24,208 bases of DNA from a virus. Lineage: Duplodnaviria; Heunggongvirae; Uroviricota; Caudoviricetes. Shown one piece after another: positions 1 to 24,208 of this stretch. The position numbers were made by a program, and so were the translations under genes. How positions within the stretch are numbered: position 1 is the first letter of the stretch; the number at the start of each line of letters is the position of its first letter. The notes under the pieces are model-generated. The model saw nothing but the letters and a program-made list of their open reading frames with translations. It was not told the DNA's origin and ran no database searches. The stretch spans positions 1 to 24,208 of IMG/VR virus record IMGVR_UViG_2579778956_000001; one strand, given 5' to 3'.

Positions 1-1053
1 TTACGGGGTAATGCCAACCGCTGCCGCCACTTTGTCGCCACTTGGCAGCGTTGCCAGAGGATTGAAACGGAGCGCCGTTTCCAGATGATCCGGTGCCAGA
101 TGTGCGTAACGCATAGTCATTTTTATATCGTGGTGTCCGAGAATTTTTTGTAAGGCCAGAATGTTTCCACCCGACATCATGAAGTGCGCCGCAAACGTAT
201 GGCGCAGAACGTGTGTGAGTTGACCGCGAGGGAGCACGATAGACGTTTTTTCCATCACGGATAAAAATTGAAAATAGCAGTCTGTGAAGAAATTGAACCC
301 ATCAAGCGCCATGATCTCTTCGTAAAGCTCTTTACTGATAGGGATGCTTCTGTTTTTCTTCCCCTTCGTTCTTACAAAGGTAATTCGGTATTTGGTCACC
401 TGTGAACGAGTAAGATTTACGGCTTCTCGCCAGCGTGCGCCTGTGCTTAAGCATATCTTAACTACCAGTGCCAGAATTGGGTCCTGACGTTTGCAATCAG
501 CCAGTAATTCAACAATCTGCTCATGGGTAAGCCATGCCATCTCTTTTTCTGCGATGGTGAATTTTCGCATGTTCTCCAGTGGGTTCGGATACGACCATTC
601 GCCCAGGCGGGATAGTTCGCTAAAAACACTACTTAGATAGCTTTGCTCCAGGTTAATGGTGACCGGGCTTGCTCCTTTCTTCCATTTCTCGCTGAAGTAG
701 ATCTCACCTGTCAGGCGTTTATCTCGATAGTGGGCAAACATTTTAGAGGTTAGATCAGTTGCAAGGGGATTGCCCAGAGCGTCAACCATCAGCAGCAATT
801 TGTCATAGACATGCTGCCCAGCTGTCAGTGATTTACCATGTAGTTTGAACCATAGCTCAACCACGTCTTTCAGTGTTCGACGATCCACTGATTCACCTAG
901 CCAGGGCTTTGCTTCGGTTTCTTCCATCGTGTGACGCTCAAAAGCCAGTGCTTCGCCTTTGGTGGCGAATTGTTTACGCACACGACGTCCACTACGTCCG
1001 GCGGGGTAACATTCGCAAAGCCATTTTCCTGTGGTGAGTTTTCGTACTGCCAT
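1..1053 (-). CDS. int: P2/186-family tyrosine integrase (site-specific recombinase)
   Basis: 350-aa ORF with the stop codon at window positions 1-3. Contains LSTGARWREA, FVRTKGKK, HVLRHTFAAHFMMSGG, LQKILGHHD and MRYAHL motifs typical of P2-type integrases (catalytic R..HxxR..Y). Sits at the prophage end next to the repressor, as in P2/186. Confidence 0.9.
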   Translation of the reverse strand: MAVRKLTTGKWLCECYPAGRSGRRVRKQFATKGEALAFERHTMEETEAKPWLGESVDRRTLKDVVELWFKLHGKSLTAGQHVYDKLLLMVDALGNPLATDLTSKMFAHYRDKRLTGEIYFSEKWKKGASPVTINLEQSYLSSVFSELSRLGEWSYPNPLENMRKFTIAEKEMAWLTHEQIVELLADCKRQDPILALVVKICLSTGARWREAVNLTRSQVTKYRITFVRTKGKKNRSIPISKELYEEIMALDGFNFFTDCYFQFLSVMEKTSIVLPRGQLTHVLRHTFAAHFMMSGGNILALQKILGHHDIKMTMRYAHLAPDHLETALRFNPLATLPSGDKVAAAVGITP

Positions 1054-2833: not shown

Positions 2834-3430
2834 TCAATTTGAAACTATTGTACTTCTTATACAAGCAACCACTTCAATATCAGAAAATGCACATTCAAAG
2901 CTATTCTCTGTAGTTGTAATTTTAATCATACCTTTTGGAAGCTTTGTGATTTTTCGAATGGAATAGGTTCCGTCGATGTTGATTAACCAGTGTCCATCAA
3001 GTACTTCAGAAAATTTTTGATCACAAATGTATGTGACAAGCCCATCCTGAATAACAATTGGTGATGAAAGATTTGCAGGAAGAAATGATGAATCGAATAC
3101 ATATGAACCATCTTCAATCATTTTGCCTGCGGTAAGGCGAAACTTGGGAAGCTCTTCTGTGGCTACTGTCAGCGAGCTTTGCTTAAGTCCTTGCCCGGTG
3201 GTTAACCATTTCAGTGAGGTTCCTGTTTCAAGAGCACATTGGATTATCCAGTCTGCAGGAAACGTATCCCGCAAATACCTGTTCGCCAGAGTGCTTTTTG
3301 ATACTTCCAAGTGATCAGCTAAAGCCTGTCGTGTCGTAAAGCCATAAGCTTCGACTAATCGCTCAATCGCAGCCTTACCACCTTTATTGGGATTTATTTT
3401 GATCTCACTTGGGTACTTTGATGTTGACAT
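2834..3430 (-). CDS. cI: 186-type CI immunity repressor (N-terminal HTH, C-terminal oligomerisation domain)
   Basis: 198-aa ORF. N-terminal LVEAYGFTTRQALADHLEVSKSTLANRYLRD...ALETGTSLKWLTTGQG resembles the phage-186 CI HTH domain. Divergent from the apl/cII genes and adjacent to int. No LexA/S24-type Ala-Gly cleavage site or G-D-S-M motif seen. Confidence 0.75.
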   Translation of the reverse strand: MSTSKYPSEIKINPNKGGKAAIERLVEAYGFTTRQALADHLEVSKSTLANRYLRDTFPADWIIQCALETGTSLKWLTTGQGLKQSSLTVATEELPKFRLTAGKMIEDGSYVFDSSFLPANLSSPIVIQDGLVTYICDQKFSEVLDGHWLINIDGTYSIRKITKLPKGMIKITTTENSFECAFSDIEVVACIRSTIVSN

Positions 3431-3779: not shown

Positions 3780-4289
3780 ATGTTTGATTACCAAGTTTCC
3801 AAACATCCACATTTTGATGAAGCCTGTCGTGCATTCGCATTGCGCCACAACCTGGTGCAACTGGCAGAACGTGCTGGCATGAATGTGCAGATTCTGCGGA
3901 ACAAGCTGAACCCATCTCAACCTCATTTATTAACCGCACCAGAAATCTGGCTGCTTACCGATCTGACTGAAGATTCAACGCTGGTAGATGGTTTTCTGGC
4001 ACAGATTCACTGCCTGCCATGTGTACCGATTAATGAGGTTGCAAAAGAGAAACTGCCGCATTACGTCATGAGCGCAACTGCAGAGATCGGACGTGTTGCA
4101 GCAGGTGCGGTATCTGGTGATGTAAAAACTAGTGCCGGTCGTCGTGATGCTATCAGCAGCATTAACTCTGTAACACGACTGATGGCGCTGGCTGCTGTTT
4201 CATTGCAGGCCCGTTTACAGGCTAATCCTGCGATGGCGAGTGCAGTTGATACCGTGACTGGCCTCGGTGCTTCATTCGGTTTGCTGTGA
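3780..4289 (+). CDS. cII: Phage regulatory protein CII (186/P2-family)
   Basis: Start chosen at ATG 3780 ([45 protein letters not shown]...) after the apl stop, with a GGGG SD upstream. Sequence recalled as 186 CII-like; position after apl. Confidence 0.7.
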
Positions 4290-8980: not shown

Positions 8981-9106
8981 AAGGTCAACTAAGGATTGAA
9001 ACAGAAAGCCCTTGAAAACAGTAGCAAGTTGCCTATTATCTACGCTGTATTTAATCGATGTCATTGGCTGTAATACCTTAAGTGATATTGAAAGGCGGTG
9101 TGGGGA

Positions 9107-10267
9107 ATGGATCTGGCTAAAGTTGAAGAACGCGTCCGAAGAGTCATAGGGACAATGGAGTCTGCCGAGCTTGATGAATATTTTTGGGGTAAGCGCTCGG
9201 GTTTGGGAGACTCATTACCTCCGTATTATCTCGTTTATTTTCTTTTGGTAGATTTACTGAAATTTAAAAATCGTGGGGTTGATGAGAAGATTTCTTTTTC
9301 TATCCCAGTCCGGATTGATGGGACTGTCGTAATTATAGAACATCGTAAACTTGGTTTAGATATATTTATCAAGAGTGATGATGATATAGAGCAAGCTAAA
9401 ACTGTTTTGAGACATATTTGCGCAGGGGTTAAAGCTGCTACGAAATTTTTTGACTCGCTTGCAGACAATGCAGCAAAGACTTCAAATCTAAATGTTAATA
9501 ACAATGCTAATTCTCTTTATGATAGGTTTTGCTATTTTTTAGAGCTATATAAACAGAAGCTTGATGAAGTTGCTGCTGGCCAAGAGTCTAAACTGGAAGT
9601 TGATAGTGAGTTTAAGTCTGATAATTTTTTCAGCCTGTTACAATCCACTTTTGAACAATCAAATAAGATAATTGAACTCCGAAGAGAGGCTATGTGGTTA
9701 GCAACGTCTGCAATTGAGTCATTTTTCAATTGGACCGAGCATGTTTTCATTCTTATTGCAATCTTGAAGGGTGAGATAAAAAATGGGAATGATGTGGCTG
9801 ATAAAGTTGGGAAAGAATGGGGGGAGAAATTCAAATTAGCCATTGATATTAACTCTTCCAGTCTAAAATCATTCTATGATCGTTTACTTATACTCAGAAA
9901 ACAGGTGCGTAATTTTGTAGCCCATGGCGCCTTCGGTAAGGATGGGCAAGCATTGGAATTTCACTCAAGTGTAGGGGCTGTGCCACTATTGCTGCCTCAT
10001 CGAGAAAATAAAGAACGTTTCAAGTTTGGAAATGGTGTGCATTTTTTGGCACCTGAAGCAATGCAATTAATTAACGATTTTCTTGAAAATTTGTGGCAGG
10101 GAGAACTGTCCCCAGCAAAAATTTATATTGAATCTGGATGTCCTTTAATACTATCTTACGTAACTAATGGAACCTATGCGGAGGCGATGAAATCAGAAAG
10201 GAATATGGACTTATTGGTTAATTACTTAACTCGTGAGATGGATAATGCCGCAAACATGGATTGGTAA
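9107..10267 (+). CDS. Hypothetical protein with HEPN-like R-N-x3-H motif (candidate RNase-type defence/abortive-infection effector)
   Basis: ORF with ATG at 9107 (alternative GTG at 9098; SD-like AAGG at 9092-9095, about 11 nt upstream). AT-rich codon usage. Contains LRKQVRNFVAHG, which fits the HEPN consensus R-[NSH]-x3-H. No other domain recognised. Lies in the gpA-Q hotspot. Confidence 0.65.
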   Translation: MDLAKVEERVRRVIGTMESAELDEYFWGKRSGLGDSLPPYYLVYFLLVDLLKFKNRGVDEKISFSIPVRIDGTVVIIEHRKLGLDIFIKSDDDIEQAKTVLRHICAGVKAATKFFDSLADNAAKTSNLNVNNNANSLYDRFCYFLELYKQKLDEVAAGQESKLEVDSEFKSDNFFSLLQSTFEQSNKIIELRREAMWLATSAIESFFNWTEHVFILIAILKGEIKNGNDVADKVGKEWGEKFKLAIDINSSSLKSFYDRLLILRKQVRNFVAHGAFGKDGQALEFHSSVGAVPLLLPHRENKERFKFGNGVHFLAPEAMQLINDFLENLWQGELSPAKIYIESGCPLILSYVTNGTYAEAMKSERNMDLLVNYLTREMDNAANMDW

Positions 10268-10594: not shown

Positions 10595-11845
10595 ATGGAT
10601 AAACAACGTGCTTCACAAGTTTTTGTGCCTGGCGGTATGCCGAAATTGACTTATGTTGAGCGCTCTGAAGGAGAGGTTCATGGAAAACTGGAGAGTGCTA
10701 AAGATAATTTATGTAAGTTAGTGACTTTAACTGGGCAAACAAAGTCTGGTAAGACTGTAATTACAAGAATGGTATTCCCAGTCATGGACGATGATGTTGT
10801 ATGGATTGACGGTGGGAGTATTACAACTGAAGATGATATTTGGGAGCAGGTATTAGAAAAACTAAATGGCTACCATAGTATTGAAGTTAATTCTGGAGAA
10901 AATAGTGCTATTGCAGTTAGTGGTAAGGTATCGGGGACCGCAAGTGCATTCGTTGTTAAAGGTACAGGTGAGGCTGGTTTAGTTCAGACGGATGGAAAGT
11001 CAAATGGTAATAAAAAATCGCGAACGATATCCGCAAAAAGTTCTGCACTAAAAGTTCTCTCTCAAACCAAGTCTAGTCTTATAATTGATGACTTTCATTA
11101 CCTTGATCGTGACCTACAAGGTAACTTTATTAGAGCGATAAAACCATTAGTTTTTGATGGAGTACCAGTTGTACTGATAGCCATTCCACATCGAAGATAT
11201 GATGCTGTAAAAGTTGAAAAAGAAATTACCGGACGGCTAGAAAATATTTCCATGCCTTCGTGGGAAATGGATGAACTAAAACAAATAGCAAAAGTGGGAT
11301 TTCCTCTGTTAAACATGGAAGTTAGTGATTCAGTAATTGATAAAATTGCCAATGAATCATTGGGAAGCCCTCATTTAATGCAAGAGTTTTGCAAGGCTAT
11401 ATGCTTAGCAAATAATGTTAAAGAAACTTTGCCGAGTAAGTTAGTTATTAATTCTTTAGATGATGATATTTTTAGAAAGGTTGCAGAATCCACTGGGAAA
11501 ATAGTATTTGATAAGTTAGCTAGTGGCCCTAATCAGCGAACTGACAGAATTCCTAGAAAACTGAAAAGTGGTGAGGAAGTAGATATATATAAAGTTGTAT
11601 TATATGCATTGTCACATATGAAACCAGGAATGCAAAGTATTCAGTATGAGGAGTTAAGATCAGCCATACGCGAACTGGTGCAAGATGCTCCTCCACAAGC
11701 TCATGAGGTTACTCGTGTTATAGAAAAAATGGCTAAAATAGCTGCTACGGAAGAAGCTTCAACTCCTGTAATAGATTGGGATAAGGAGGACCGAAAGTTG
11801 CATATTACTGATCCATTTTTTGCTTTTTATCTAAAATGGCGATAA
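10595..11845 (+). CDS. P-loop NTPase (Walker A/B ATPase), candidate defence-system ATPase
   Basis: 416-aa ORF with SD GGGAAG upstream. Walker A LTGQTKSGKT (about residue 45) and Walker B-like hhhhDD (SLIIDDFHYLD). AT-rich. No nuclease (Toprim/HNH) motif recognised, so not an obvious Old/Gabija-type protein. Confidence 0.8.
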   Translation: MDKQRASQVFVPGGMPKLTYVERSEGEVHGKLESAKDNLCKLVTLTGQTKSGKTVITRMVFPVMDDDVVWIDGGSITTEDDIWEQVLEKLNGYHSIEVNSGENSAIAVSGKVSGTASAFVVKGTGEAGLVQTDGKSNGNKKSRTISAKSSALKVLSQTKSSLIIDDFHYLDRDLQGNFIRAIKPLVFDGVPVVLIAIPHRRYDAVKVEKEITGRLENISMPSWEMDELKQIAKVGFPLLNMEVSDSVIDKIANESLGSPHLMQEFCKAICLANNVKETLPSKLVINSLDDDIFRKVAESTGKIVFDKLASGPNQRTDRIPRKLKSGEEVDIYKVVLYALSHMKPGMQSIQYEELRSAIRELVQDAPPQAHEVTRVIEKMAKIAATEEASTPVIDWDKEDRKLHITDPFFAFYLKWR

Positions 11846-11877: not shown

Positions 11878-12915
11878 CTAATTTGAATGAAGTTTATATT
11901 CTTCGAACTGTATCACTTTTTCTTTTAACCAAACATTTAACTCTTCAAATCTTTTTTGCAATGGTATTAGTTCATTGCGTACAAATACATTACTTGCCTT
12001 CTCCACATCCCCAAACCCCCCAACATTATTTGGCATTATCCCCATCATCTGTGGCGGCACGCGGTGTGCCGCCATCATGTCATCGCGACTAACATTTTTG
12101 ATATTCAGAAATTCATCCTTCGCTGCGACTTCTGACAACGGGATAATCTGAAGTCCGTCTTTTTTACCATTAGGCGAGTACATAAACAGATTGCGGAAGT
12201 TACCCGGACCTTTGGCGCTTTTCATTGCGTTGCGGAGGTTGTTCACATCCTCCTGGTTCTGCGCGGCATCGGTCATGTACATGATGAAGCCGGCATGACT
12301 GCCGTTAATGTAATACTTGCGGCGGAACAGCGTGGCGGACTCGTTGAGCAAAGCGGATGGGATGGCAGAAAGATAGCCGGGCAGGCCGTAGATCTCCTGG
12401 TTGATGTCCGGTTCCATCAGATGAAAAATGCTGCCTTTCGTGAACTGATACGGCTGGGTTGTCATACCGTATTGCACAAACCAGTAGGTATCCAGGTCTA
12501 ACCCGCGTCGGGTGTATTTTGCCAGCGCAGGCTCAAGGGCGATAACTTCACCGAATCGGTTCGTGCGTTTCTCCAGGTAGGCGTTACCAAATACCAGATA
12601 GTCCTGTACAAAACGCGAAAAAGCCTGTTGGCTGAGCAGCGGATGAGGGATATAGGTACTGGTCAGAATGTTGCACTTTACTGCAATCGGGGAACTGTGA
12701 TGCACGGCAGCCCGGAAGGTGCGCGCCAGTCCGTCAAAACTTACGGGTGGCTCGTACCAACACTCCATCTGTACGCATTCCACATAGTCCAGCAGTTCGC
12801 GGCGGTCCAGAACAGGAACGGGATCACCGAAGCTGAATGCTTCGGCTGAAGTCTGGCTTTTATGCTGGATCTGTTTCGTCGACGCAGCGCGGTTCTTCTT
12901 ACTCTTTCCCATCAA
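11878..12915 (-). CDS. Q: Portal vertex protein gpQ
   Basis: 345-aa ORF; size and position (upstream of and translationally coupled to the terminase gene) match P2 gene Q. Start overlaps the terminase stop. Confidence 0.85.
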   Translation of the reverse strand: MMGKSKKNRAASTKQIQHKSQTSAEAFSFGDPVPVLDRRELLDYVECVQMECWYEPPVSFDGLARTFRAAVHHSSPIAVKCNILTSTYIPHPLLSQQAFSRFVQDYLVFGNAYLEKRTNRFGEVIALEPALAKYTRRGLDLDTYWFVQYGMTTQPYQFTKGSIFHLMEPDINQEIYGLPGYLSAIPSALLNESATLFRRKYYINGSHAGFIMYMTDAAQNQEDVNNLRNAMKSAKGPGNFRNLFMYSPNGKKDGLQIIPLSEVAAKDEFLNIKNVSRDDMMAAHRVPPQMMGIMPNNVGGFGDVEKASNVFVRNELIPLQKRFEELNVWLKEKVIQFEEYKLHSN

Positions 12916-14678
12916 AAAATCTCCACAATATTGCTGGTATTGGCGGACTCGCCCTGCAGCGGTTCGTTAAACAGTGCGTGCATTGTTGCCCAGGCCAGAT
13001 CGGCATGGCTGGCTTCTTCGCTGCGGCTGGCTTCATAGGTCGGGCGGTTGCCACTGGCAGTGGTAGCGCGACGGATTGCCATAAATGACTGCGCAATGTC
13101 GGTGTGCCCGGCGTCAAACTCCAGACGGCGGTGGCTGATAATGTCGTAGGCCTTGAGTACCAGGGCGTTTTTAACATTGGGGTTGTAGACAAACTCCCGG
13201 ACGGCAGGAAAGAACGCTTTCACGTTCTCATAAACCCCGTGACCAACGCCGGTTGAGTCGATACCGATATAGGTCACGTTGTACTGTTCGGTCAGTTTTT
13301 TGATGGCGTCAGCCTGGGCGCGGAAGTCCATCCCGCGCCACTGGTGACGCTCAAGAATGCGGAACTTACCACCAGGCACGGCTGGCGGTGCCACCACCAC
13401 GCATCCGGCGCTGTCGCCGTTTTGCGTACCTTTTGCCGGGTCATAACCGATCCACACTTCGCGCCAGCCAAACGGGCGCAGAGCCAGTGCATGAAAGTCG
13501 GTCCAGACTTCCCAGCTGTCCACCATGCACGCCTGCAGCTCGCTGAGCGGAAATACGGACGCGAGATCGTCCACAAACTCGCACATCAGCAGGTTCTGGT
13601 ATTCGTCCGGGCTGTACTCCATGCGCAACTGGTCAAGGTCGAACAGGTTACAGCCGCCGCGCACCGCATCTTCCACGGTGACTATCTGGCGGTATTGCCC
13701 GTCTGCGCACAGCAGGCCGGGGGCCAGATTGCTGTGGGACAGGTCGATGTCCACCTTGTCGGCCTTGTTGCGCCCACGGTTGAACAGCGCACCGGACCAG
13801 AACGGATAAGCACTGTGTGTCAGGCTGGATGGCGTGGAAAAATAGGTTTGTCGCCATTTTTTGTGAATAGCCATACCGGAAGCCACTTTGCGCAGCTCCT
13901 GGAATTTCGGTATCCAGAAATATTCATCCAGATACAGGTTGCCGTGATAACTCTGGGCCGTGCGGGCATTGGTGCCGAGGAAGTAAAGCGTGGCCCCGTT
14001 AGGAAGCACCATCGGATCGCCTTTCAACTCCACCCCCACTTCTTTGGCGAAGTCGATGATGTACTGCTTAAAGACGTGGGCCTGTGCCTTGCTGGCGGAA
14101 AGGAAAATCTGGTTACGTCCGGTAAGCAGGGCGTCAATCAGGGCTTCACGGGCAAAGTAAAAGGTCGCGCCGATCTGGCGTGACTTCAGCAGGTTGCGGA
14201 TGCGGTTGGTTTTTCCGGCTTCCCACCAGTGGCGCTGGTAGTTGAACATGGAGGAATGGAAGATTTCTTCCAGCTTCTCAATCTGCTCATCGGTGAAAAC
14301 ATTCTTTTCCGGCTGACGGCGTGGGCCTTTATTGCGGTTGGCGACGTTAGGGTTTAAGTCGGCTTCGTTGCCGCCATTGTTAAACTTGCCGATCCGCGCG
14401 TGGCGCTCCGACTGGCGCGCCAGCAGGTCAATCTCTTTGAAATCTTTCCCTTCTTTGTGCTCCTTCATGATGAGCTGGCAGTAGCGTGCGGCGGTGGTGA
14501 GCTGCATCTGATCCAGCGGCCCATAGTCACCCCACTTGTCGCGTTTTTTCCAGCTGTGAACGGTTGCAACTTTCTCGCCCAGCATTTCAGCAATGCGGGC
14601 TACGCGGTATCCCTGAAAGTACAGCAGCATGGCCTGCCGACGGGGATCGAGATCTGCGGGTGTCAGTGTGGTGTTCAT
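12912..14678 (-). CDS. P: Terminase large (ATPase) subunit gpP
   Basis: 588-aa ORF (P2 gpP is about 590 aa), divergent from the scaffold gene O, with the Q gene immediately downstream in the same orientation. Confidence 0.9.
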   Translation of the reverse strand: MNTTLTPADLDPRRQAMLLYFQGYRVARIAEMLGEKVATVHSWKKRDKWGDYGPLDQMQLTTAARYCQLIMKEHKEGKDFKEIDLLARQSERHARIGKFNNGGNEADLNPNVANRNKGPRRQPEKNVFTDEQIEKLEEIFHSSMFNYQRHWWEAGKTNRIRNLLKSRQIGATFYFAREALIDALLTGRNQIFLSASKAQAHVFKQYIIDFAKEVGVELKGDPMVLPNGATLYFLGTNARTAQSYHGNLYLDEYFWIPKFQELRKVASGMAIHKKWRQTYFSTPSSLTHSAYPFWSGALFNRGRNKADKVDIDLSHSNLAPGLLCADGQYRQIVTVEDAVRGGCNLFDLDQLRMEYSPDEYQNLLMCEFVDDLASVFPLSELQACMVDSWEVWTDFHALALRPFGWREVWIGYDPAKGTQNGDSAGCVVVAPPAVPGGKFRILERHQWRGMDFRAQADAIKKLTEQYNVTYIGIDSTGVGHGVYENVKAFFPAVREFVYNPNVKNALVLKAYDIISHRRLEFDAGHTDIAQSFMAIRRATTASGNRPTYEASRSEEASHADLAWATMHALFNEPLQGESANTSNIVEIF

Positions 14679-14724
14679 GGCACAAACCTACAACCTTGAA
14701 TGAAGGCTTTCCCCGCCTGCGGTT

Positions 14725-14742
14725 TGTGTGGTTGTCGGTACA
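14725..14742. promoter_or_regulatory. TGT-N12-ACA dyad (Ogr/Delta-type late-promoter activator site) in the divergent P/O promoter region
   Basis: TGTgtggttgtcggtACA at 14725-14742 within the 142-bp P-O intergenic region, centred about 88 bp upstream of the O start codon. P2 late promoters carry a TGT-N12-ACA element near -55. Confidence 0.45.
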
Positions 14743-14820
14743 AATACCGCGCATTGTTTCACTGCCCCCATCACCGCAACCATAAGGCTCCAGTAAGTTT
14801 TTTCTAACGGAGCACGGCTC

Positions 14821-15459
14821 ATGACAGTGAAAGCAAAGCGTTTTCGCATCGGGGTGGAAGGTGCCACCACCGACGGACGCGAAATCCAGCGTGAATGGCT
14901 GGAACAGATGGCAGCCAGCTACAACCCGGCGGTGTATACCGCGCTGATTAACCTTGAGCACATCAAGTCTTATCTGCCGGACAGCACCTTTAACCGCTAC
15001 GGCAAGGTGACGGCGCTGTTTGCTGAAGAAATCAAGGAAGGTCCGCTGGCAGGCAAGATGGCGCTGTATGCCGACGTTGAGCCAACGGAGTCCCTGGTGG
15101 AACTGGTGAAAAAAGGCCAGAAATTATTCACATCTATGGAAGTTAGCCCGAAGTTCGCTGATACGGGCAAAGCCTACCTGGTCGGCCTGGCTGCCACTGA
15201 TGACCCTGCCAGTCTGGGCACTGAAATGCTGACATTCAGCGCCAGTGCAGCCCATAACCCGCTGGCAAACCGCAAGCAGAATCCCGCCAATCTTTTTACC
15301 GCTGCAGAGGAAACGGTGATCGAACTGGAAGAAATCCAGGATGACAAACCGTCCCTGTTTGCCCGTGTCACGGCGCTGTTCACCAAAAAAGAGCAGTCCG
15401 ATGACGCCCGGTTCTCTGATGTGCATAAGGCCGTGGAACAACTGGCAGGGGATCGTTGA
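14821..15459 (+). CDS. O: Capsid scaffolding protein gpO, C-terminally truncated at a deletion junction (likely nonfunctional)
   Basis: 212-aa ORF with an N-terminus of gpO type (FRIGVEGATTDGREI...YLVGLAATDDPASLGTE). P2 gpO is about 284 aa as I recall. The ORF ends in a short non-homologous tail (QLAGDR*) exactly where tail-tube homology begins in another frame. Confidence 0.75.
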   Translation: MTVKAKRFRIGVEGATTDGREIQREWLEQMAASYNPAVYTALINLEHIKSYLPDSTFNRYGKVTALFAEEIKEGPLAGKMALYADVEPTESLVELVKKGQKLFTSMEVSPKFADTGKAYLVGLAATDDPASLGTEMLTFSASAAHNPLANRKQNPANLFTAAEETVIELEEIQDDKPSLFARVTALFTKKEQSDDARFSDVHKAVEQLAGDR

Positions 15460-15904
15460 GTCGCTGACGCTGCCGAAATTTACCCGCAAATATGAGAAGT
15501 ATCGCGGCGGCGGAATGCCGGGTGCGGTGGATGTGGATCTGGGGCTTGATGACAGTGCGCTGGACACAGAATTTTCCATTGGTGGTACTGAATTGCTGCT
15601 GTTTAAACAGATGGGTAAAGCCACGGTGGATGGCATCCAGCTGCGCTTTACCGGCTCTATTCAGCGTGACGATACCGGGGAAGTGCAGGCCGTGGAGCTT
15701 GTCGTGCGTGGACGTCACAAAGAAGTGGATTCCGGCGAGTGGAAGACGGGCGAAAGCAACACCACCAAAGTGACCAGTACCAACAGCTACGCGAAGCTGA
15801 CCATCAATGGTGAGGTGCTCTATGAAGTGGACCTTATCAACATGGTGGAAATTGTGGACGGTGTGGACCTGATGGAAGCGCACCGCAACGCCCTCGGCCT
15901 CTGA
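15446..15904 (+). pseudogene. FII: Tail tube protein FII, 5'-truncated fragment fused downstream of gpO
   Basis: Frame of ORF 15341..15904. Homology to the P2 major tail tube protein begins about at QGIVESLTLPKFTRKYEKYRGGGMPGAVDVDLGLDD and runs to the C-terminus (...EAHRNALGL). About 25 N-terminal residues and any start codon/SD are missing; the upstream part of the ORF overlaps gpO out of frame. Confidence 0.7.
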
Positions 15905-15958
15905 TATATCTGAACGGCGCGGGATACCGCGCCAGAACCCAATTGACAGGACAGCAAA

Positions 15959-16261
15959 ATGAGCGATAAGCAGACTGAAAAGACCATTCAACTGGATACC
16001 CCCATCAAGCGCGGTAAAACAGAAATCACCGAAATTGTGCTGCGTAAACCGCAGTCCGGTGCGCTGCGCGGTACACGCCTGCAGGCCATTATGGATATGG
16101 ATGTGAACGCGATGATGACCGTGATCCCCCGCATCTCCAGTCCGGCACTGACTGCACAGGAAATTGCAGAGATGGACCCGGCAGATCTCACTGCCATGTC
16201 GGTTGAGGTTGTCACTTTTTTGTTGAAGAAGTCGGTGCTTGCCGGTTTACCGACAGCCTGA
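15959..16261 (+). CDS. E: Tail assembly chaperone gpE
   Basis: 100-aa ORF directly upstream of the tape-measure gene, containing a slippery heptamer near its 3' end, as in P2 E/E' (analogous to lambda G/GT). Confidence 0.8.
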   Translation: MSDKQTEKTIQLDTPIKRGKTEITEIVLRKPQSGALRGTRLQAIMDMDVNAMMTVIPRISSPALTAQEIAEMDPADLTAMSVEVVTFLLKKSVLAGLPTA

Positions 16262-16395
16262 CGGTTGACGATCTGGTGGCAGATATCGCCACCATTTTTC
16301 ACTGGCCGCCATCCGTTACTGACGTTATGCCGCTGACCGAAGTGCTGGAATGGCGGTATAAAGCGATTCAGAGAAGCGGGGCCAACGATGAGTGA
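15959..16395 (+). CDS. E': gpE+E' extended chaperone produced by programmed -1 ribosomal frameshift
   Basis: After a -1 slip at T TTT TTG (16216-16222) the reading frame stays open to TGA at 16393-16395, overlapping the T start codon (16388). Translated by hand: ...FVEEVGACRFTDSLTVDDLVADIATIFHWPPSVTDVMPLTEVLEWRYKAIQRSGANDE*. Confidence 0.7.
16216..16222 (+). other. Programmed -1 frameshift slippery heptamer (X XXY YYZ = T TTT TTG)
   Basis: TTTTTTG, in frame as ac[T TTT TTG] in gene E. Conserved arrangement upstream of tape-measure genes. Confidence 0.7.
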
Positions 16396-19300
16396 TAACA
16401 ACCTGCGTCTGCGGGTCATTCTTAATGCGGTTGACAAGCTCACCCGCCCATTTCGATCTGCGCAGGCCAGTTCAAGAGAACTGGCTGCTGCTGTCAAAAA
16501 ATCCCGCGATGCAATAAAGCAGCTTGATCAGGCCGGGAGCAGTCTGGACAGCTTCCGAAAGCTGCAGGCAGAAAATCAGAAATTAGGCGACAGGCTGAAC
16601 TATGCCCGCCAGCGTGCAAATTTGCTCAGTCAGGAACTGGGAGCGATGGGGCCGCCTTCGCAACGTCAGGTTGTTGCTCTGGGCCGTCAACGGCTGGCTG
16701 TTCAGCGCCTGGAAGAACGCCAGAAAAAGCTGCAGCAGCAGACGGCGCTTGTGCGTGCTGAACTGTACCGGGCGGGAATTTCTGCGAAAGACGATGCGGG
16801 AGCAACTGCCCGTTTAGCCCGTGAAACATCACGTTATAACCAGGAACTTTCGAAACAGGAGGCGCGGCTGAAGCGACTGGGGGAAGCTCAGCGCAGGATG
16901 AATGCAGCGCGTGCCAGTTATGCCCGTTCGCTGGAGGTGCGTGATCGTATTGCAGGTGCCGGAGCCACCACCACGGCTGCAGGGCTGGCAATGGGTGCGC
17001 CAGTGATGGCGGCAGTAAAAAGCTATACCAGCATGGAAGATGCCATGAAAGGTGTGGCAAAGCAGGTCAATGGTCTGCGTGACGATAATGGCAACCGCAC
17101 TGCACGTTTTTATGAAATGCAGGATGCCATCAAGGCTGCCAGCGAACAGTTGCCGATGGAAAACGGTGCGGTGGACTTCGCTGCACTGGTTGAAGGTGGT
17201 GCGCGCATGAACGTCGCAAACCCTGACGACAGCTGGGAAGATCAGAAACGTGACCTGCTGGCCTTCGCCAGTACGGCAGCAAAGGCGGCAACAGCCTTTG
17301 AGCTGCCAGCGGATGAACTGTCAGAAAGTCTGGGGAAAATCGCCCAGCTCTACAAAATTCCTACCCGCAATATTGAACAGCTCGGTGATGCGCTGAACTA
17401 TCTGGATGATAACGCCATGTCGAAAGGGGCAGACATCATTGATGTCATGCAACGCCTGGGCGGTGTGGCTGATCGTCTGGATTATCGTAAAGCGGCGGCG
17501 CTGGGTTCCACCTTTCTGACACTGGGCGCTGCGCCAGAGGTTGCAGCCAGTGCAGCAAACGCGATGGTGCGTGAATTGTCCATTGCCACCATGCAAAGCA
17601 AGAGTTTCTTTGAAGGGATGAATCTGCTGAAACTCAATCCTGAAGTGATTGAAAAGCAGATGACGAAGGATGCGATGGGAACTATCCAGCGCGTACTGGA
17701 GAAGGTGAACGCACTGCCGCAGGATAAACGTCTGTCTGCCATGACCATGTTGTTTGGTAAAGAGTTTGGCGATGACGCGGCGAAACTGGCAAACAACCTG
17801 CCGGAACTGCAGCGCCAGCTAAAACTGACAGCGGGCAATGATGCGCTCGGCTCCATGCAGAAAGAATCCGACATTAACAAGGACTCACTTTCTGCGCAGT
17901 GGTTGCTGGTCAAAACCGGAGCGCAGAACACCTTCAGCAGCCTGGGCGAAACGCTGCGCCAGCCGCTGATGGATATTCTGTACACGGTGAAAAGCATCAC
18001 GGGGGCGTTGCGCCGCTGGGTGGAAGCTAACCCGGAACTGACAGGCACACTGATGAAAGTAGCCGCTGTGGTGGCTGCGGTTACCGTAGGCCTCGGAACC
18101 TTAGCGGTGGCGCTGGCTGCAGTGCTGGGGCCGCTGGCAGTGATTCATCTGGGATTCTCTGTGCTGGGTATCAAAACGTTACCTTCCGTTACGGCAGCAG
18201 TAACCCGAACCAGCAGCGCGTTGTCCTGGCTGGCTGGCGCACCACTGGCACTGCTGCGACGCGGGCTTGCTTCATCGGGCAACGCCGCAGGTTTACTTAC
18301 TGCGCCGTTGTCGTCTTTGCGCCGCACGGCATTACTGACGGGAAATGTCCTGAAAACTGTAGCAGGTGCGCCGGTTGCACTTTTGCGGTCTGGATTATCC
18401 GGTTTACGTGCTGTTGCTGTGATGTTTATGAATCCTCTGGCGGTACTGCGCGGTGGACTGGCCGCCGCAGGCACGGTGCTGCGAGTACTGGCATCTGGTC
18501 CACTGGCGATGCTGCGCGTTGCCCTGTATGCCGTATCTGGTCTGTTAGGTGCTCTGCTCAGTCCGATAGGTCTTGTGGTTACTGCACTGGCGGGCGTGGC
18601 GCTGGTTGTCTGGAAATACTGGCAACCCATCACCGCATTTCTTGGTGGCGTGGTGGAAGGATTCAAAGCGGCGGCAGGTCCCGTCAGTGAAGCATTCGAA
18701 CCGCTTAAGCCCGTGTTCCAGTGGATTGGCGACAAAGTACAGGCGCTGTGGGGCTGGTTTACTGATCTGCTGACGCCCGTTAAGTCGACCTCTGCCGAAC
18801 TGCAGAGTGCAGCGGCAATGGGGCGACGATTCGGGGAGGCACTGGCGGAAGGGCTAAATATGGTCATGCATCCGCTGGACTCCCTGAAATCCGGCGTTTC
18901 CTGGTTGCTGGAGAAGCTCGGCATTGTCAGTAAAGAGGCCGCAAAGGCAAAACTGCCGGAAAGCGTGACGCGTCAGCAACCTGCGACGGTGAATGCAGAC
19001 GGTAAAGTGATGATGCCATCGGGTGGTTTTCCATCATGGGGATATGGCTTTGCGGGGATGTATGACAGCGGCGGGTATATCCCGCGCGGGCAGTTTGGCA
19101 TCGTCGGTGAAAACGGGCCGGAAATTGTTAACGGCCCGGCAAATGTGACCAGCCGGAGAAATACAGCTGCACTGGCTGCCGTTGTTGCCGGAATGATGGG
19201 AGTTGCTGCCGCGCCAGCAGAGCTTCCACCGTTGCACCCTTTGGCACTTCCCGCGAAAGGTGGAGAAGCAATTGTGAGTCGCGCAGCCACTGTGCCGCTC

Positions 19301-19465
19301 GTTCAACGGATTGAGGCACCGACGCAGATCATCATTCAGACGCAGCCAGGACAAAGTGCGCAGGATATTGCGCGGGAGGTGGCACGCCAGCTTGATGAAC
19401 GTGAACGCAGGCTGAAGGCAAAAGCCAGGAGTAACTACAGCGATCAGGGGGGATACGACGCATGA
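16388..19465 (+). CDS. T: Tail tape measure protein gpT
   Basis: 1025-aa ORF; coiled-coil-rich N-terminal half, Ala/Gly/Leu-rich hydrophobic repeats in the middle. Follows E/E' and precedes U and D. Confidence 0.9.
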   Translation: MSDNNLRLRVILNAVDKLTRPFRSAQASSRELAAAVKKSRDAIKQLDQAGSSLDSFRKLQAENQKLGDRLNYARQRANLLSQELGAMGPPSQRQVVALGRQRLAVQRLEERQKKLQQQTALVRAELYRAGISAKDDAGATARLARETSRYNQELSKQEARLKRLGEAQRRMNAARASYARSLEVRDRIAGAGATTTAAGLAMGAPVMAAVKSYTSMEDAMKGVAKQVNGLRDDNGNRTARFYEMQDAIKAASEQLPMENGAVDFAALVEGGARMNVANPDDSWEDQKRDLLAFASTAAKAATAFELPADELSESLGKIAQLYKIPTRNIEQLGDALNYLDDNAMSKGADIIDVMQRLGGVADRLDYRKAAALGSTFLTLGAAPEVAASAANAMVRELSIATMQSKSFFEGMNLLKLNPEVIEKQMTKDAMGTIQRVLEKVNALPQDKRLSAMTMLFGKEFGDDAAKLANNLPELQRQLKLTAGNDALGSMQKESDINKDSLSAQWLLVKTGAQNTFSSLGETLRQPLMDILYTVKSITGALRRWVEANPELTGTLMKVAAVVAAVTVGLGTLAVALAAVLGPLAVIHLGFSVLGIKTLPSVTAAVTRTSSALSWLAGAPLALLRRGLASSGNAAGLLTAPLSSLRRTALLTGNVLKTVAGAPVALLRSGLSGLRAVAVMFMNPLAVLRGGLAAAGTVLRVLASGPLAMLRVALYAVSGLLGALLSPIGLVVTALAGVALVVWKYWQPITAFLGGVVEGFKAAAGPVSEAFEPLKPVFQWIGDKVQALWGWFTDLLTPVKSTSAELQSAAAMGRRFGEALAEGLNMVMHPLDSLKSGVSWLLEKLGIVSKEAAKAKLPESVTRQQPATVNADGKVMMPSGGFPSWGYGFAGMYDSGGYIPRGQFGIVGENGPEIVNGPANVTSRRNTAALAAVVAGMMGVAAAPAELPPLHPLALPAKGGEAIVSRAATVPLVQRIEAPTQIIIQTQPGQSAQDIAREVARQLDERERRLKAKARSNYSDQGGYDA

Positions 19466-19947
19466 TGATGGTGCTGGGATTGTACGTGTTTATGCTGCGC
19501 ACCGTTCCGTATCAGGAACTGCAGTATCAACGCAGCTGGCGACATGCGGCTAACAGCCGGGTAAATCGTCGTCCGTCCACGCAGTTTCTGGGACCGGACA
19601 ACGACATGCTGACGCTTTCCGGTGTTCTTATGCCGGAGATAACAGGCGGCAGGCTGTCGTTGCTGGCACTGGAGCAGATGGCAGAACAGGGGAAAGCATG
19701 GCCTCTGATTGAAGGCAGCGGCACGATTTACGGCATGTATGTGATTGAGGGACTGAATCAGACTAAAACGGAGTTTTTCCGCGACGGTATGCCGCGCCGG
19801 ATTGAGTTCACCCTGTCGCTCAAACGGGTGGATGAATCCCTGTCCGATATGTTCGGTGATCTCAGTGCGCAGCTGAATAATCTGCAGGGAACGGCAACAT
19901 CAGCCTTAAGCGATATCAGTAAAACGGTGGGAGGGCTTCTGTCGTGA
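19462..19947 (+). CDS. U: Tail protein gpU
   Basis: 161-aa ORF; ATGA overlap with the T stop. Position between T and D as in P2. Confidence 0.8.
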   Translation: MMMVLGLYVFMLRTVPYQELQYQRSWRHAANSRVNRRPSTQFLGPDNDMLTLSGVLMPEITGGRLSLLALEQMAEQGKAWPLIEGSGTIYGMYVIEGLNQTKTEFFRDGMPRRIEFTLSLKRVDESLSDMFGDLSAQLNNLQGTATSALSDISKTVGGLLS

Positions 19948-21044
19948 ATTTCAGCTCTGAACTGCTTAACAAAGGCAACAAAACTCCGGCATTCAGCATC
20001 AGTATTGAAGGCAGAAATATCACCACTGTGCTGGACAACCGCCTGATGGGGCTGACGCTGACGGATAACCGGGGATTTGAAGCGGACCAGCTTGATCTGG
20101 AGCTGGACGACGCCGATGGAAAAATCGTGCTGCCGCGCCGTGGTGCGGTCATTACGCTGGCGCTGGGCTGGAAGGGGCAGCCGCTTTTCCCGAAAGGGGC
20201 ATTCACGGTGGACGAGATTGAACACACTGGCGCACCGGACCGCCTGACTATCCGGGCGCGAAGTGCTGATTTTCGGGAAACCCTGAATACCCGCCGTGAA
20301 AAATCTTGGCACAAGACCACCGTCGGGGAAGTGGTAAAGGAAATAGCCGCGCGTCACAAGCTGAAGATGGCGCTGGGTAAAGACCTGTCGGATAAGCCCG
20401 TGGAACATATAGACCAGACTAATGAGAGTGACGGCAGTTTTCTGATGCGGCTGGCGCGACAGTACGGTGCCATCGCGTCGGTGAAAAATGGCAATCTGCT
20501 ATTCATCCGGCAGGGGCAGGGCAAAAGCGCCACTGGTAAACCACTGCCAGTGATCACTATCACACGCAAGGACGGCGACAGTCACCGCTTTACCCTGGCA
20601 GATCGCGGAGCCTACACGGGCGTAATTGCCAGCTGGTTGCATACCCGCGAACCTGCGAAGAAAGAAAGCACCACGGTGAAGCGTAAGCGCAGAACTAAGA
20701 AGCAGAAGAAAGAGCCAGAAGCGAAGCAGGGCGATTACCTGGTGGGTACGGATGAAAACGTGCTGGTACTTAATCGCACTTATGCCAACCGGAGCAACGC
20801 CGAACGAGCGGCGAAAATGCAGTGGGAACGCCTGCAACGCGGCGTTGCGTCATTCTCGCTACAACTGGCAGAAGGGCGGGCAGATCTCTACACGGAAATG
20901 CCAGTGAAAGTCAGTGGCTTTAAACAGCCGATAGATGATGCGGAATGGACCATTACGACTCTGACGCATACCGTCAGCCCGGATAACGGTTTTACGACCA
21001 GTCTGGAGCTTGAAGTGAGGATTGATGATTTCGAAATGGAATGA
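19944..21044 (+). CDS. D: Tail protein gpD (late control gene D family)
   Basis: 366-aa ORF; GTG start overlapping the U stop (GTGA). Position between U and ogr as in P2. Confidence 0.85.
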   Translation: MNFSSELLNKGNKTPAFSISIEGRNITTVLDNRLMGLTLTDNRGFEADQLDLELDDADGKIVLPRRGAVITLALGWKGQPLFPKGAFTVDEIEHTGAPDRLTIRARSADFRETLNTRREKSWHKTTVGEVVKEIAARHKLKMALGKDLSDKPVEHIDQTNESDGSFLMRLARQYGAIASVKNGNLLFIRQGQGKSATGKPLPVITITRKDGDSHRFTLADRGAYTGVIASWLHTREPAKKESTTVKRKRRTKKQKKEPEAKQGDYLVGTDENVLVLNRTYANRSNAERAAKMQWERLQRGVASFSLQLAEGRADLYTEMPVKVSGFKQPIDDAEWTITTLTHTVSPDNGFTTSLELEVRIDDFEME

Positions 21045-21134
21045 TTCTTCGCAATGGAGAACTTTTAAGTTTGCAAAATGGAATAATACGGTATCATTAT
21101 TGTGAATTTAGCAAAAATGGGGAGAACTCGAAAA

Positions 21135-21353
21135 ATGATGATTTGCCCACTGTGTGGAAGTGCCGCCCATACTCGCAGCAGTTTTCAGGTATCTTCATTG
21201 ACCAAAGAGCGTTACAACCAGTGCCAGAATATTAACTGCAGCCATACTTTTGTAACCCATGAAACTTTTGTTCGTTCGATTGCAACGCCAAAAGAGTCAA
21301 ATCCGGTTCAGCCGCATCCAATGAAATCAGGACAGGTGGCGCTCTCTCTTTGA
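21135..21353 (+). CDS. ogr: Ogr/Delta-family zinc-finger late-gene transcription activator
   Basis: 72-aa product from ATG 21135 (SD GGAGA 21121-21125): MMICPLCGSAAHTRSS...KERYNQCQNINCSHTF..., which has the Ogr C-x2-C...C-x4-C pattern and the same length as P2 Ogr. Last gene before the host junction. Confidence 0.8.
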   Translation: MMICPLCGSAAHTRSSFQVSSLTKERYNQCQNINCSHTFVTHETFVRSIATPKESNPVQPHPMKSGQVALSL

Positions 21354-21433
21354 CGCTGCCGCCATTTTGTCGCCATCGTTAAAAAACAGTGCTTCTAACG
21401 TCATGATTTTAAACGGCATAAATTTCAGGCAAC

Positions 21434-21476
21434 AAAAAACCCATCAACCTTGAACCGAAATGGCGGGGTTGATGGG
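21434..21476 (-). terminator. Putative intrinsic terminator downstream of ybjL (minus-strand sense)
   Basis: Inverted repeat CCCATCAACC (21440-21449) / GGTTGATGGG (21467-21476), preceded on the plus strand by AAAAAA (21434-21439), a U-run on the minus strand. The loop is long (17 nt), so confidence is modest. Confidence 0.4.
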
Positions 21477-21588
21477 CTCCACAAAATGGGGACATCAAAG
21501 AAAAGCAGTGGCACTAATTAAGACTGATGCCCTGCGGAAAAGTTCTGCGGTTGTGCAAAAAAATTTCATTTTCAGGGCAACTTCAGTT

Positions 21589-23274
21589 TTATCCTAATCC
21601 TGGCCATACCATGACGATGATTGTCCCTGCCAGCGTCAGCAGGACGTTGGCGATTGCATAGGTGCCCGCATAGCCCAGCGCCGGGATGTTACTGCGAGCT
21701 GTATCACTGATGATCTCCATTGCCGGCGCGCAGGTACGTGCGCCCATCATTGCGCCGAACAACAGTGCGCGGTTCATTCGCAATACATAAGCACCGAACA
21801 AGAAACAGATAACCACGGGCACCAGACTGACAATCAATCCGGCAATCAACATCTGACCGCCAATCGCGCCCAGGCCGTTATTAATACCGCTACCGGCGCT
21901 CAGACCAACGCCTGCCATAAACACCATCAAGCCGAACTCTTTCACCATGCTTAATGCACCTTGCGGAATGTAACCGAAGGTCGGGTGGTTAGCACGCATA
22001 AAGCCCAGCATAATTCCGGCGAATAACAACCCGGCAGCGTTCCCCATGCCGAAACTGAATGTGCTGAACTGGAAGGTGATCATCCCGATCATCAGCCCAA
22101 TAACAAAGAAGGCGCAAAATGCCAGCAGGTCAGTGACCTGGCTGTGAATCGAGATAAAGCCGATGCGATCGGCGATGGTTTTTACGCGACGGGCATCACC
22201 GCTGACTTGTAAAACGTCACCTTTGTTAAGCACGACGTTGTCATCTATCGGCATCTCAATCTGGCTACGAATGACGCGGTTAAGGAAGCAACCGTGATCG
22301 GTCAACTTCAGTTGTGCGAGACGTTTACCTACAGCGTTATGGTTTTTAACGACCACTTCTTCAGTGACGATACGCATGTCGAGAAGGTCACGATCGAAAA
22401 CTTCTTTACCGTTACGGAAGCTGGGATCGAGTCGGGCATGGGCGTCGGGATAGCCTACCAACGCTATTTCATCGCCCATTTGTAGCACGGCATCACCGTC
22501 TGGATTTGCCAGAATCCCGTTACGTCGAATACGTTCAATGTAGCAGCCGGTTTGTCGATAAATACCCAGTTCACGCAGATTTTTGCCGTCGGTCCAGGCC
22601 ACCAGCTCCGGGCCGACGCGATAGGCGCGGATCACCGGTAAATAAACCTTACGGTTGGCATCAGTGTCCAGGCCACGTTCGCGGGCGATTTGCTGGGCGC
22701 TGGTCTGTAAGTCCTGATGCTGCAATTTCGGCAAGTAACGCGCACCAACAATCAAACTCACCAGACCGATTAAATAGGTTAAGGCATACCCGAGGCTCAG
22801 ATTATCCAGTGCCAGTGAGAGCTGCCTGCTTTCCATGCCGGAATGACGCAGTGTATCGCCAGCACCGACCAGAACCGGTGTCGACGTCATAGAGCCTGCT
22901 AACATACCGGCCGTCAGGCCAATATCCCAGCCAAACAGCTTACCTAACCCTAAGGCGATCACCAGCGCACTGCCAACCATCACCAGTGCTAACATTAGGT
23001 AATTTTTCCCATCGCGAAAAAAAATGGAAAAAAAGTTCGGTCCGGCTTCGACCCCGACGCAGAAAATAAACAGCATAAAGCCAAGATTAAGCGCATCGGT
23101 GTTAATGCTGAAATGTTGTTGGCCTAATAACAGCGATACGACTAAAACGCCAATGGAATTACCCAGTTGGATCGAACCAAGTCGTAACTTTCCGAGACAT
23201 AGCCCAAGCGCGAGGACCACAAATAATAACAGAATGTAATTCCCATTTAACAATTCGGCGACGTTTATATTCAC
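21589..23274 (-). CDS. ybjL: Putative AAE-family transport protein YbjL (host chromosomal gene)
   Basis: 561-aa polytopic membrane protein with central TrkA-C-like soluble domains. N-terminus [38 protein letters not shown] matches E. coli YbjL as I recall. Confidence 0.9.
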
Positions 23275-23543
23275 GGAGGCTAACTTCTTGTTTACTAGTA
23301 AGCTGTTGAAAGAAATGGTAATTTACGATAATGTTTTTTACCAGAATTCAGGGCGCAGATTCATTCAGCGCACCTAAACGATAGTAAAGTAACAATATAT
23401 TTTACTAGTGTAATCACATTAGGTATCAACGGCTATATGAATTGCGTTGGCCTATATTAGCATGGAATGCGAAGCGGCTTTATCTTACTGAACGCCACAC
23501 TGGCGAAAAATGTGTTCGATAGACGCAGTGTCAGGAGGAACGA

Positions 23544-23921
23544 GTGAAACATAAACAACGTTGGGCGGGGGCAATCTGCTGTTTTGTCCTCTTCATTGTG
23601 GTGTGCCTTTTTCTGGCGACGCACATGAAAGGCGCTTTTCGGGCTGCCGGGCATCCTGAAATCGGCTTGCTATTTTTCATTCTTCCTGGAGCAGTGGCCA
23701 GCTTCTTTTCACAGCGTAGAGAAGTCCTGAAACCTCTGTTTGGCGCAATGCTGGCGGCACCCTGTTCGATGCTCATTATGCGGCTGTTTTTTTCACCGAC
23801 GCGCTCATTCTGGCAAGAGCTGGCATGGTTACTAAGCGCGGTGTTCTGGTGTGCGCTGGGGGCACTGTGTTTCTTATTTATCAGTAGTTTGTTTAAACCA
23901 CAGCACAGAAAAAATCAGTAA
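23544..23921 (+). CDS. ybjM: Inner membrane protein YbjM (host gene)
   Basis: 125-aa hydrophobic protein; GTG start behind SD AGGAGG (23533-23538). Conserved neighbour of ybjL and grxA. Confidence 0.85.
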   Translation: MKHKQRWAGAICCFVLFIVVCLFLATHMKGAFRAAGHPEIGLLFFILPGAVASFFSQRREVLKPLFGAMLAAPCSMLIMRLFFSPTRSFWQELAWLLSAVFWCALGALCFLFISSLFKPQHRKNQ

Positions 23922-23940
23922 AGCCCTCAACGCGAGGGCT
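23922..23940. terminator. Bidirectional intrinsic terminator between convergent ybjM and grxA
   Basis: Stem AGCCCTC (23922-23928) / GAGGGCT (23934-23940), loop AACGC; A-run upstream on the plus strand (U-run for the grxA transcript). Confidence 0.55.
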
Positions 23941-23950
23941 TGTCAGACGA

Positions 23951-24208
23951 TCAGGCGTCCAGATTTTCTTTCACCCATGCAGCAAAATCGGTATAGCCGC
24001 CGATATGTTGCTGATCGACAAAAATCTGCGGCACGGTTTCTACGGGTTTACCTGCCTTTTGTTGTAGATCTTCTTTAGTGATCCCTTCCGCACGAATATC
24101 TACATACTGATACTGAAAATCATCGCGTTCATTGCTCAATTTCTCAGCCAGATCTTTTGCACGCACACAGTAAGGGCAACCCGAACGACCAAAAATAACG
24201 GTTTGCAT
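23951..24208 (-). CDS. grxA: Glutaredoxin 1
   Basis: 85-aa ORF MQTVIFGRSGCPYCVRAKDLAEKL... with the CPYC active site. Start codon lies at the very end of the window (24206-24208). Confidence 0.9.
   Translation of the reverse strand: MQTVIFGRSGCPYCVRAKDLAEKLSNERDDFQYQYVDIRAEGITKEDLQQKAGKPVETVPQIFVDQQHIGGYTDFAAWVKENLDA

Follow-up and report, generated by a model that had tools for sequence, protein, structure and literature searches.

A perfect TGT-N12-ACA dyad is present between the divergent genes P and O of a defective P2/186-like prophage in Escherichia coli. Its sequence, its conservation and its position identify it as an orthologue of the Ogr/B activator site of phages P2 and 186, an ordinary and well-understood element. 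At the level of sequence, it has every feature of a P2/186-type late promoter dependent on Ogr, B or Delta. It is predicted to be common to the two divergent promoters, PP and PO, rather than specific for PO. We consider it very probable that the prophage's own activator acts on this shared dyad to serve PP and PO, and that the arrangement has been retained because the deletion in the late region is recent.

The window, that is, the whole stretch of 24,208 nucleotides that was analysed, is part of an E. coli chromosome. Its right flank (21400–24208) matches ybjL-ybjM-grxA at 100% in E. coli genomes, and a P2/186-like prophage of the Peduoviridae occupies positions 1 to about 21444. Among complete phages, Klebsiella phage 4LV2017 (Elveevirus; locus L002) is the closest, with about 96% identity. 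The early region is of the 186 type, with an integrase (1–1053, minus strand), a CI repressor (2834–3430, minus strand), CII, DUF5347, a Dam-type methylase and gpA. The late genes that are left are Q and P on the minus strand and, on the plus strand, a truncated O, a truncated FII, E, T, U, D and a gene of the Ogr/Delta family (Table 1).

The prophage also carries cargo. Between int and cI, a gene on the minus strand (1137–2813) encodes a protein of 558 residues that matches the anti-phage system PD-Lambda-1 (PADLOC E = 7e-120) and contains the Pfam domains DUF4041 and T5orf172/MUG113; this gene is absent from the same place in 4LV2017. Two further cargo genes, both on the plus strand, occupy the tin/old hotspot, from gpA to cos/Q. 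The 389-residue product of the first (9098–10267) has no Pfam or PADLOC match, and the second (10595–11845) encodes a 416-residue AAA ATPase that matches the candidate defence family PDC-S59 (E = 1e-31). At the tin/old position, 4LV2017 instead has a retron St85-type effector and a polymerase. The gene for the small RNA RybB (Rfam RF00110, 105 bits; 21431–21509, minus strand) abuts the prophage end. The core of attR, located at 21426–21444 by comparison with 4LV2017, overlaps the 3' end of rybB, suggesting that integration takes place in the rybB terminator, which the phage then restores.

Table 1. Features of the late region of the prophage, in window coordinates.
Feature	Position	Strand	Evidence
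Gene Q, portal protein, intact, second in PP operon	11878–12915	−	Phage_portal; annotated homologue
Gene P, terminase large subunit, 588 aa, intact, first in PP operon	12912–14678	−	Terminase_5, Terminase_6N, Terminase_6C
Predicted PP −10, TAGGTT	14685–14690	−	Aligns with TAGCCT of P2/186; 6 nt, then predicted start 14678
Ogr/B-type activator dyad, TGT-N12-ACA	14725–14742	.	Sequence, conservation in alignment A1, homologous position in P2/186
Predicted PO −10, AACCAT	14778–14783	+	Anchored alignment with GAAACT of P2/186
O' Shine-Dalgarno, GGAG	14809–14812	+	Direct sequence reading; 8 nt ahead of ATG 14821
O', truncated scaffold/protease, 206 native residues + 6 foreign + stop	14821–15459	+	Phage_GPO profile, positions 2–207 of 268
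Deletion junction, GGA 3-bp microhomology, joining 4LV2017 16373 and 27330	15435–15437	.	Comparison with intact 4LV2017
'FII, tail tube remnant, without first 16 codons and own start	15438–15904	+	Phage_tube profile, positions 14–165 of 165
Tail genes E (end 16261), T, U and D, full length, downstream of PO	15959–21044	+	Lengths equal to 4LV2017
Sigma-70-like promoter ahead of ogr, TTTGCA-16-TATCAT	21070–21097	+	Promoter scan; P2 record has one in the same place
ogr, homologue of 186 B, 72 aa from MMICPLC	21135–21353	+	Ogr_Delta profile, zinc finger; 219-nt gene called in strain H5

The dyad between genes P and O

The gap between P and O corresponds exactly to positions 14679–14820 and is 142 bp long, with the ATG of P at 14678 on the minus strand and the ATG of O at 14821 on the plus strand. 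The dyad, TGTGTGGTTGTCGGTACA, has its centre at 14733.5. The pattern is low in information, and the case for the dyad therefore depends on context, namely on conservation, position and use in the lineage. The bare TGT-N12-ACA pattern is not enriched in the window: it occurs seven times against 5.18 expected, and 22 of 100 shuffled sequences reach seven. Intact 4LV2017 has eight matches against 8.6 expected. These counts are what a chance match without a regulatory role would produce, although for a perfect match in a single gap of 142 bp the chance expectation is about 0.03.

The comparison with relatives, on the other hand, argues strongly against chance. The window was aligned with 4LV2017 (Elveevirus), SopEPhi and SEN8 (both Felsduovirus), ST15-OXA48phi14.1 (Gegavirus) and ST437-OXA245phi4.1 (Gegevirus); in this alignment of the window and five relatives (A1), mean column identity is 89%. 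The TGT and ACA half-sites do not change in any of these sequences, in contrast to the 12-nt spacer and the flanks. This invariance extends to ST15-OXA48phi14.1 and ST437-OXA245phi4.1, which are 78–80% identical across the 401-bp query. The dyad is also in a position homologous to the annotated activator sites of P2 (3057–3087) and 186 (3798–3817). Furthermore, three of the eight matches in 4LV2017 coincide exactly with the three late-promoter positions, including those upstream of V (21569–21586) and FI (26010–26027). The presence of perfect dyads before V and FI as well suggests that the lineage uses the motif at all of its late promoters. Taken with this conservation and placement, a chance origin is extremely improbable.

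A second perfect match, at 14667–14684, was considered and dismissed as a chance occurrence. It spans the start codon of P and is not conserved, with CCA in SopEPhi and SEN8 and a 3-bp indel that breaks the Gegavirus and Gegevirus copies.

An inverted repeat could also form an RNA or DNA hairpin, acting as a terminator or attenuator, or be an operator for another protein such as CI, Apl or IHF. A scan did flag CGGTACAAATACCG (14736–14749) as a weak terminator-like stem. However, the fold, at −12.5 kcal/mol, has a z-score of −0.83 and is equalled by 41 of 200 shuffled sequences, and pairing of the CGGTACAAATACCG stem is disrupted in SopEPhi (CCGTACAAATACAG), among others. The stem is located upstream of both predicted transcription starts and would thus stay untranscribed. 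In the Rfam scan, RybB was the only match, with none in the gap between P and O. We therefore rejected a hairpin or terminator as an explanation of the dyad, given the z-score and the lack of conservation of the flagged stem, and consider this alternative as a whole, operators included, highly improbable.

Divergent promoters PP and PO

Activator sites and transcription starts of P2 and 186 are cited from the GenBank records NC_001895 and NC_001317 and from PMC3931495 and PMC5694545. The P2 record contains one "activator binding site; pO, pP promoters" at 3057–3087, with starts at 3016 for the P operon and 3127 for the O operon. The P2 dyad, TGTGTCAGTGATAAGCCA, is at 3063–3080. It is thus separated by 47 nt from the start on one side (3063 − 3016) and by 47 nt from that on the other (3127 − 3080), with its centre at −55.5 for both promoters. 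This equal spacing implies that one bound activator serves two back-to-back promoters. The 186 record also has a single B-protein site, at 3798–3817, for the activation of pV and p12; the dyad itself, TGTGTGGGCGGTTGTCCA, is at 3800–3817.

The window shares with P2 a dyad of the TGT-N12-ACA type (for the P2-type consensus, as quoted, see PMC3931495) about 55 bp upstream of divergent promoters, a distance of 47 nt from dyad edge to start (for the window, to the predicted starts), similar −10-like hexamers and an activator with a CX2C-X22-CX4C zinc finger. It differs from P2 in the length of the gap, which is 173 bp in P2 and 142 bp in the window, and in the early region, which is of the C/Cox type in P2 and of the CI/CII type in the window. 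P2 has leaders of about 23 nt for P and about 40 nt for O, and it also has the Ogr-dependent promoters PV and PF. With 186, the window shares the location of the site between the genes for the large terminase subunit and the scaffold, the left half TGTGTGG, a distance of 87.5 from the dyad centre to the scaffold ATG, a B/Ogr homologue and an early region with CI, CII, DUF5347, Dam and gpA of the same type. The 186 site is imperfect (TGT-N12-CCA), whereas that of the window is perfect. The terminase ATG is 78.5 from the centre in 186, with a 23-nt leader containing GGCGAGG, whereas in the window it is 55.5 from the centre, with no leader predicted.

In the window, positions 47 nt from the dyad edges are 14678 leftward and 14789 rightward, each behind a −10-like hexamer in the P2/186 register. 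They lie ahead of two divergent operons, that for terminase and portal (P and Q, minus strand) and that for the scaffold (O', plus strand). On the PO side, a CATAAGGC block is invariant in A1. The match of AACCAT to GAAACT is weak (three out of six), making the predicted start uncertain by a few bases, and AACCAT is one base further out than its P2/186 counterpart, so the PO start could be 14790. PO is thus predicted to start near 14789/14790, 47–48 nt from the dyad edge, which would give a leader of about 31 nt. A consensus scan of 14679–14820 found no canonical sigma-70 promoter with −35 and −10 elements, only the −10-like TAGGTT and AACCAT, as expected for activator-dependent promoters.

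The Ogr, B and Delta activators are established to work via contact with RNA polymerase, at its alpha subunit. If the prophage follows P2 and 186, its Ogr/B-family zinc-finger activator (encoded at 21135–21353) would bind the dyad and, positioned about 55 bp upstream of each start, contact the alpha subunit. This contact would switch on two sigma-70 promoters lacking a −35 element. Leftward, PP would start at 14678 and drive P and Q; rightward, PO would be the sole late promoter left, upstream of O'-'FII-E-E'-T-U-D and ogr.

A dyad acting for PO alone, with PP using a separate activator site or being independent of an activator, would account for one peculiarity of the P side, where a start at the −55 distance coincides with the ATG itself, 22–23 nt nearer to the gene than in P2 and 186. 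However, the gap contains no other conserved dyad, as the match at 14667–14684 overlaps the start of P and is not conserved, and the records of both P2 and 186 give one site for both promoters. In addition, a −10-like TA[G/T/C]NNT is present 6 nt before the ATG (7 nt in one phage) in nine phages, that of the window included, and it is in the P2/186 register. A leaderless late mRNA also has a precedent in P2 gene V, whose start site and coding sequence both begin at 10308. A site for PO only is therefore unlikely.

The original prediction had placed an Ogr-type TGT-N12-ACA element at 14725–14742, where PO is expected. The element itself is there, as a perfect match in a gap with exactly the boundaries given, and its position and conserved half-sites agree with its proposed nature. 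Its assignment to PO only does not agree with P2 and 186, in which the site serves both promoters, and we prefer a shared site.

The ATG at 14678 is taken as the true start because the Terminase_5 domain begins at residue 11, because it is the first possible start of the open reading frame (there is none in frame upstream), because the N-terminus is colinear with that of P2 gpP (DPRRQA) and because the 3-bp indel in relatives is in frame. A start at Met17 (14630), as in the annotation of 4LV2017, was rejected given the position of Terminase_5, the colinearity with P2 gpP and the indel. The RefSeq gpP of 4LV2017 (13848–15566 of that phage, 572 residues, starting at Met17) is probably mis-called, the upstream ATG (588 residues) being favoured by domain and homology.

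On the minus strand, the P side reads TAGGTT-TGTGCC-ATG, in register with TAGCCT-TGCCGT-G(+1) in P2 and TAGCCT-TGCCCT-G(+1) in 186. The spacing and the −10 register put the +1 of PP on the A of the P ATG, leading to the prediction that the P mRNA is leaderless. A proper Shine-Dalgarno sequence is absent before P in the window, whereas P2 and 186 have GGCGAGG within their leader of 22–23 nt. A start exactly on the ATG is unusual and is predicted here from spacing only.

The same arrangement recurs in at least eight other P2-like phages, namely SopEPhi, SEN8, the two Klebsiella phages, Yersinia phage vB_YenM_31.17, SEN5, Burkholderia phage vB_FUB26 and Ralstonia phage RSY1 (loci L004–L007, L088, L090, L091 and L096). 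In these eight phages and in the window (14678–14690, minus strand), the dyad centre is 55.5–57 from the ATG, there is no Shine-Dalgarno sequence, and TA[G/T/C]NNT is separated by 6 nt (7 in vB_FUB26) from the ATG. The dyads of vB_FUB26 and RSY1 have a spacer of 13 nt (N13), in agreement with PMC5694545. Six distant P2-like phages (phiT5282H, P88, phiMhaA1, Pmp6, phiO18P and PV94) were excluded from the spacing argument, because a perfect or clearly positioned dyad is absent (any matches have one mismatch) or because their gene starts are doubtful. P2, 186 and SEN1 have an extra 22–23 nt, with the GGCGAGG Shine-Dalgarno sequence, before P.

In P2, the transcription start of V was mapped experimentally and is the start codon, at 10308, whereas the leaderless start of P in the window is predicted. 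In 4LV2017, the V ATG is 47 nt from the dyad edge, the spacing of the P ATG in the window, and V is therefore predicted to be leaderless, like V of P2. As a modest additional proposal, the P mRNA may be leaderless in most P2-like lineages, the leader of P2 and 186 being a derived insertion of 22–23 nt. The only mildly new result of this analysis is the prediction that, in many P2-like lineages, the terminase mRNA lacks a leader.

Two further observations concern the sequences around these starts. The P leader of P2 is flanked by repeated ATGAATAC, which could reflect a short insertion or duplication. The V-promoter dyad of 4LV2017, TGTATCAGCACTGATACA (21569–21586), is a perfect 8+8 palindrome and belongs to the segment that is deleted from the window.

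The deletion and the remaining late genes

In a BLAST comparison with 4LV2017, positions 11944–15437 of the window correspond to 12880–16373 of the phage, and 15435–21544 to 27330–33439. It follows that the window lacks 10,956 bp (16374–27329 of 4LV2017); at the junction, the two aligned segments share the 3 bp GGA. The junction fuses codon 206 of O to codon 16 of FII. O has lost its last quarter and FII its first 46 nt; between them, the lysis genes and the homologues of N, M, L, X, R, S, V, W, J, I, H, G and FI have gone. The dyads of the V and F promoters have disappeared with these genes, as has the terminator hairpin that follows G. With the PF and PV dyads gone, no late promoter other than PO is left upstream of 'FII-E-T-U-D.

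Read-through from PO into 'FII-E-T-U-D-ogr is plausible and would be the natural expectation. All four tail genes are on the plus strand: E at 15959–16261, with an E' extension, T at 16388–19465, U at 19462–19947 and D at 19944–21044. For 'FII, the sole available in-frame start is the ATG at 15341, located within O' and out of frame there. As O' stops at 15459 and 'FII lacks a start, about 500 nt may be poorly translated and open to Rho-dependent polarity. Such polarity after the O' stop may weaken PO read-through into E-T-U-D.

On the way from PO into the tail genes, the only terminator-like match is a hairpin at 16274–16294 (plus strand), in a stretch that transcription has to cross in intact phages too. 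The hairpin is rich in GC and precedes a run of T (TGGTGGCAGATATCGCCACCA TTTTT); it is located just past the E stop and inside the E' extension. This structure might be a frameshift-stimulating or pausing element rather than a terminator.

The activator gene is complete. Its product matches the Ogr_Delta profile (PF04606) with 77.6 bits (cut-off 26.3) over profile positions 2–47 of 47. The zinc-finger motif CX2C-X22-CX4C is intact, consisting of CPLC, 22 residues and CQNINC, and the protein is colinear with P2 Ogr. Alternative starts of the gene are at 21117 and 21102. It is located between D and attR, that is, after D and next to the attachment site, as is characteristic of the family, whose proteins have about 72–80 residues. 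From its gene content, the element cannot make particles, while its late circuit is intact in sequence.

Two statements of the original prediction, that ogr is intact and that a deletion from O to FII removed PF, are thus borne out, the first by the full-profile match and the zinc finger, the second by the loss mapped against 4LV2017, in which the V-promoter dyad has gone as well.

Retention of the late circuit

Among 5,426 complete E. coli genomes, none gave a contiguous match to the exact junction, and the 80 closest IMG/VR viral contigs lack it as well; as these contigs are 99–100% identical in O, they bring no gain for comparative analysis. With a 7.1-kb query spanning the junction, matches were obtained in 1,307 genomes, but a single match covering at least 80% of the query in only three. 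All of the 12 top-ranked records for this query (61–99% coverage) looked deletion-bearing. Bridging deletions are present in only a handful of the 1,307 matching genomes.

Two of these remnants are informative. E. coli H5 (L100 15868–16354) has a prophage at the same rcdA/rybB-ybjL site, and E. coli E1433 (L101 15888–16310) has one at ssrA. The missing segments, in 4LV2017 positions, are 16184–28228 in H5 and 15976–27646 in E1433, compared with 16374–27329 in the window. The dyad is kept in both; that of H5 is the same as in the window, and that of E1433 differs by one change in the spacer. Like the window, both have kept int, CI, the replication genes, Q, P, the dyad, a truncated O, T-U-D and ogr, and both have lost capsid, lysis, baseplate and sheath genes. 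They differ in that E is full in E1433, whereas H5 has only an E' remnant and a frameshifted T. The three deletions may be separate events; that of H5, however, encompasses that of the window and could be a second deletion in the same lineage.

The junction is absent from the genomes and contigs compared, and other remnants have other endpoints; retention of the circuit consequently looks like the result of a recent deletion, part of the ordinary decay of a widespread family, and nothing in these comparisons speaks for selection. The earlier proposal that the late-activation circuit is preserved although the particle genes are not is correct as far as the sequence is concerned, but the retention is best explained by a recent deletion rather than by a demonstrated function or by selection.

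The alternative would be that deletions from O to FII or E have recurred independently and that selection maintains what is left, a reduced module inducible by Ogr, in which the Ogr-responsive PP/PO node drives P-Q leftward and (E-)T-U-D-ogr rightward. Such a module could serve as a sensor or decoy: it would react to Ogr or Delta activators brought in by P2-like phages or P4-like satellites and would hinder these invaders by means of terminase, portal or tail-assembly proteins, in addition to the prophage's defence cargo. We regard this as very unlikely and prefer recent decay.

For annotation, the value of these results is that the P2/186 spacing allows late promoters to be located to the exact base in Elveevirus, Felsduovirus and Gegavirus phages of E. 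coli, Klebsiella and Salmonella. That the terminase mRNA is predicted to be leaderless in many P2-like phages is a minor point, open to testing, on the translation of these operons. In the defective prophage, an intact regulatory node has outlived genes under its control. If ogr is expressed, or if a P2-like phage or P4-like satellite supplies the activator, the terminase, the portal and the four tail genes would probably still be transcribed, making the prophage a possible source of cross-talk rather than an instance of a new mechanism.
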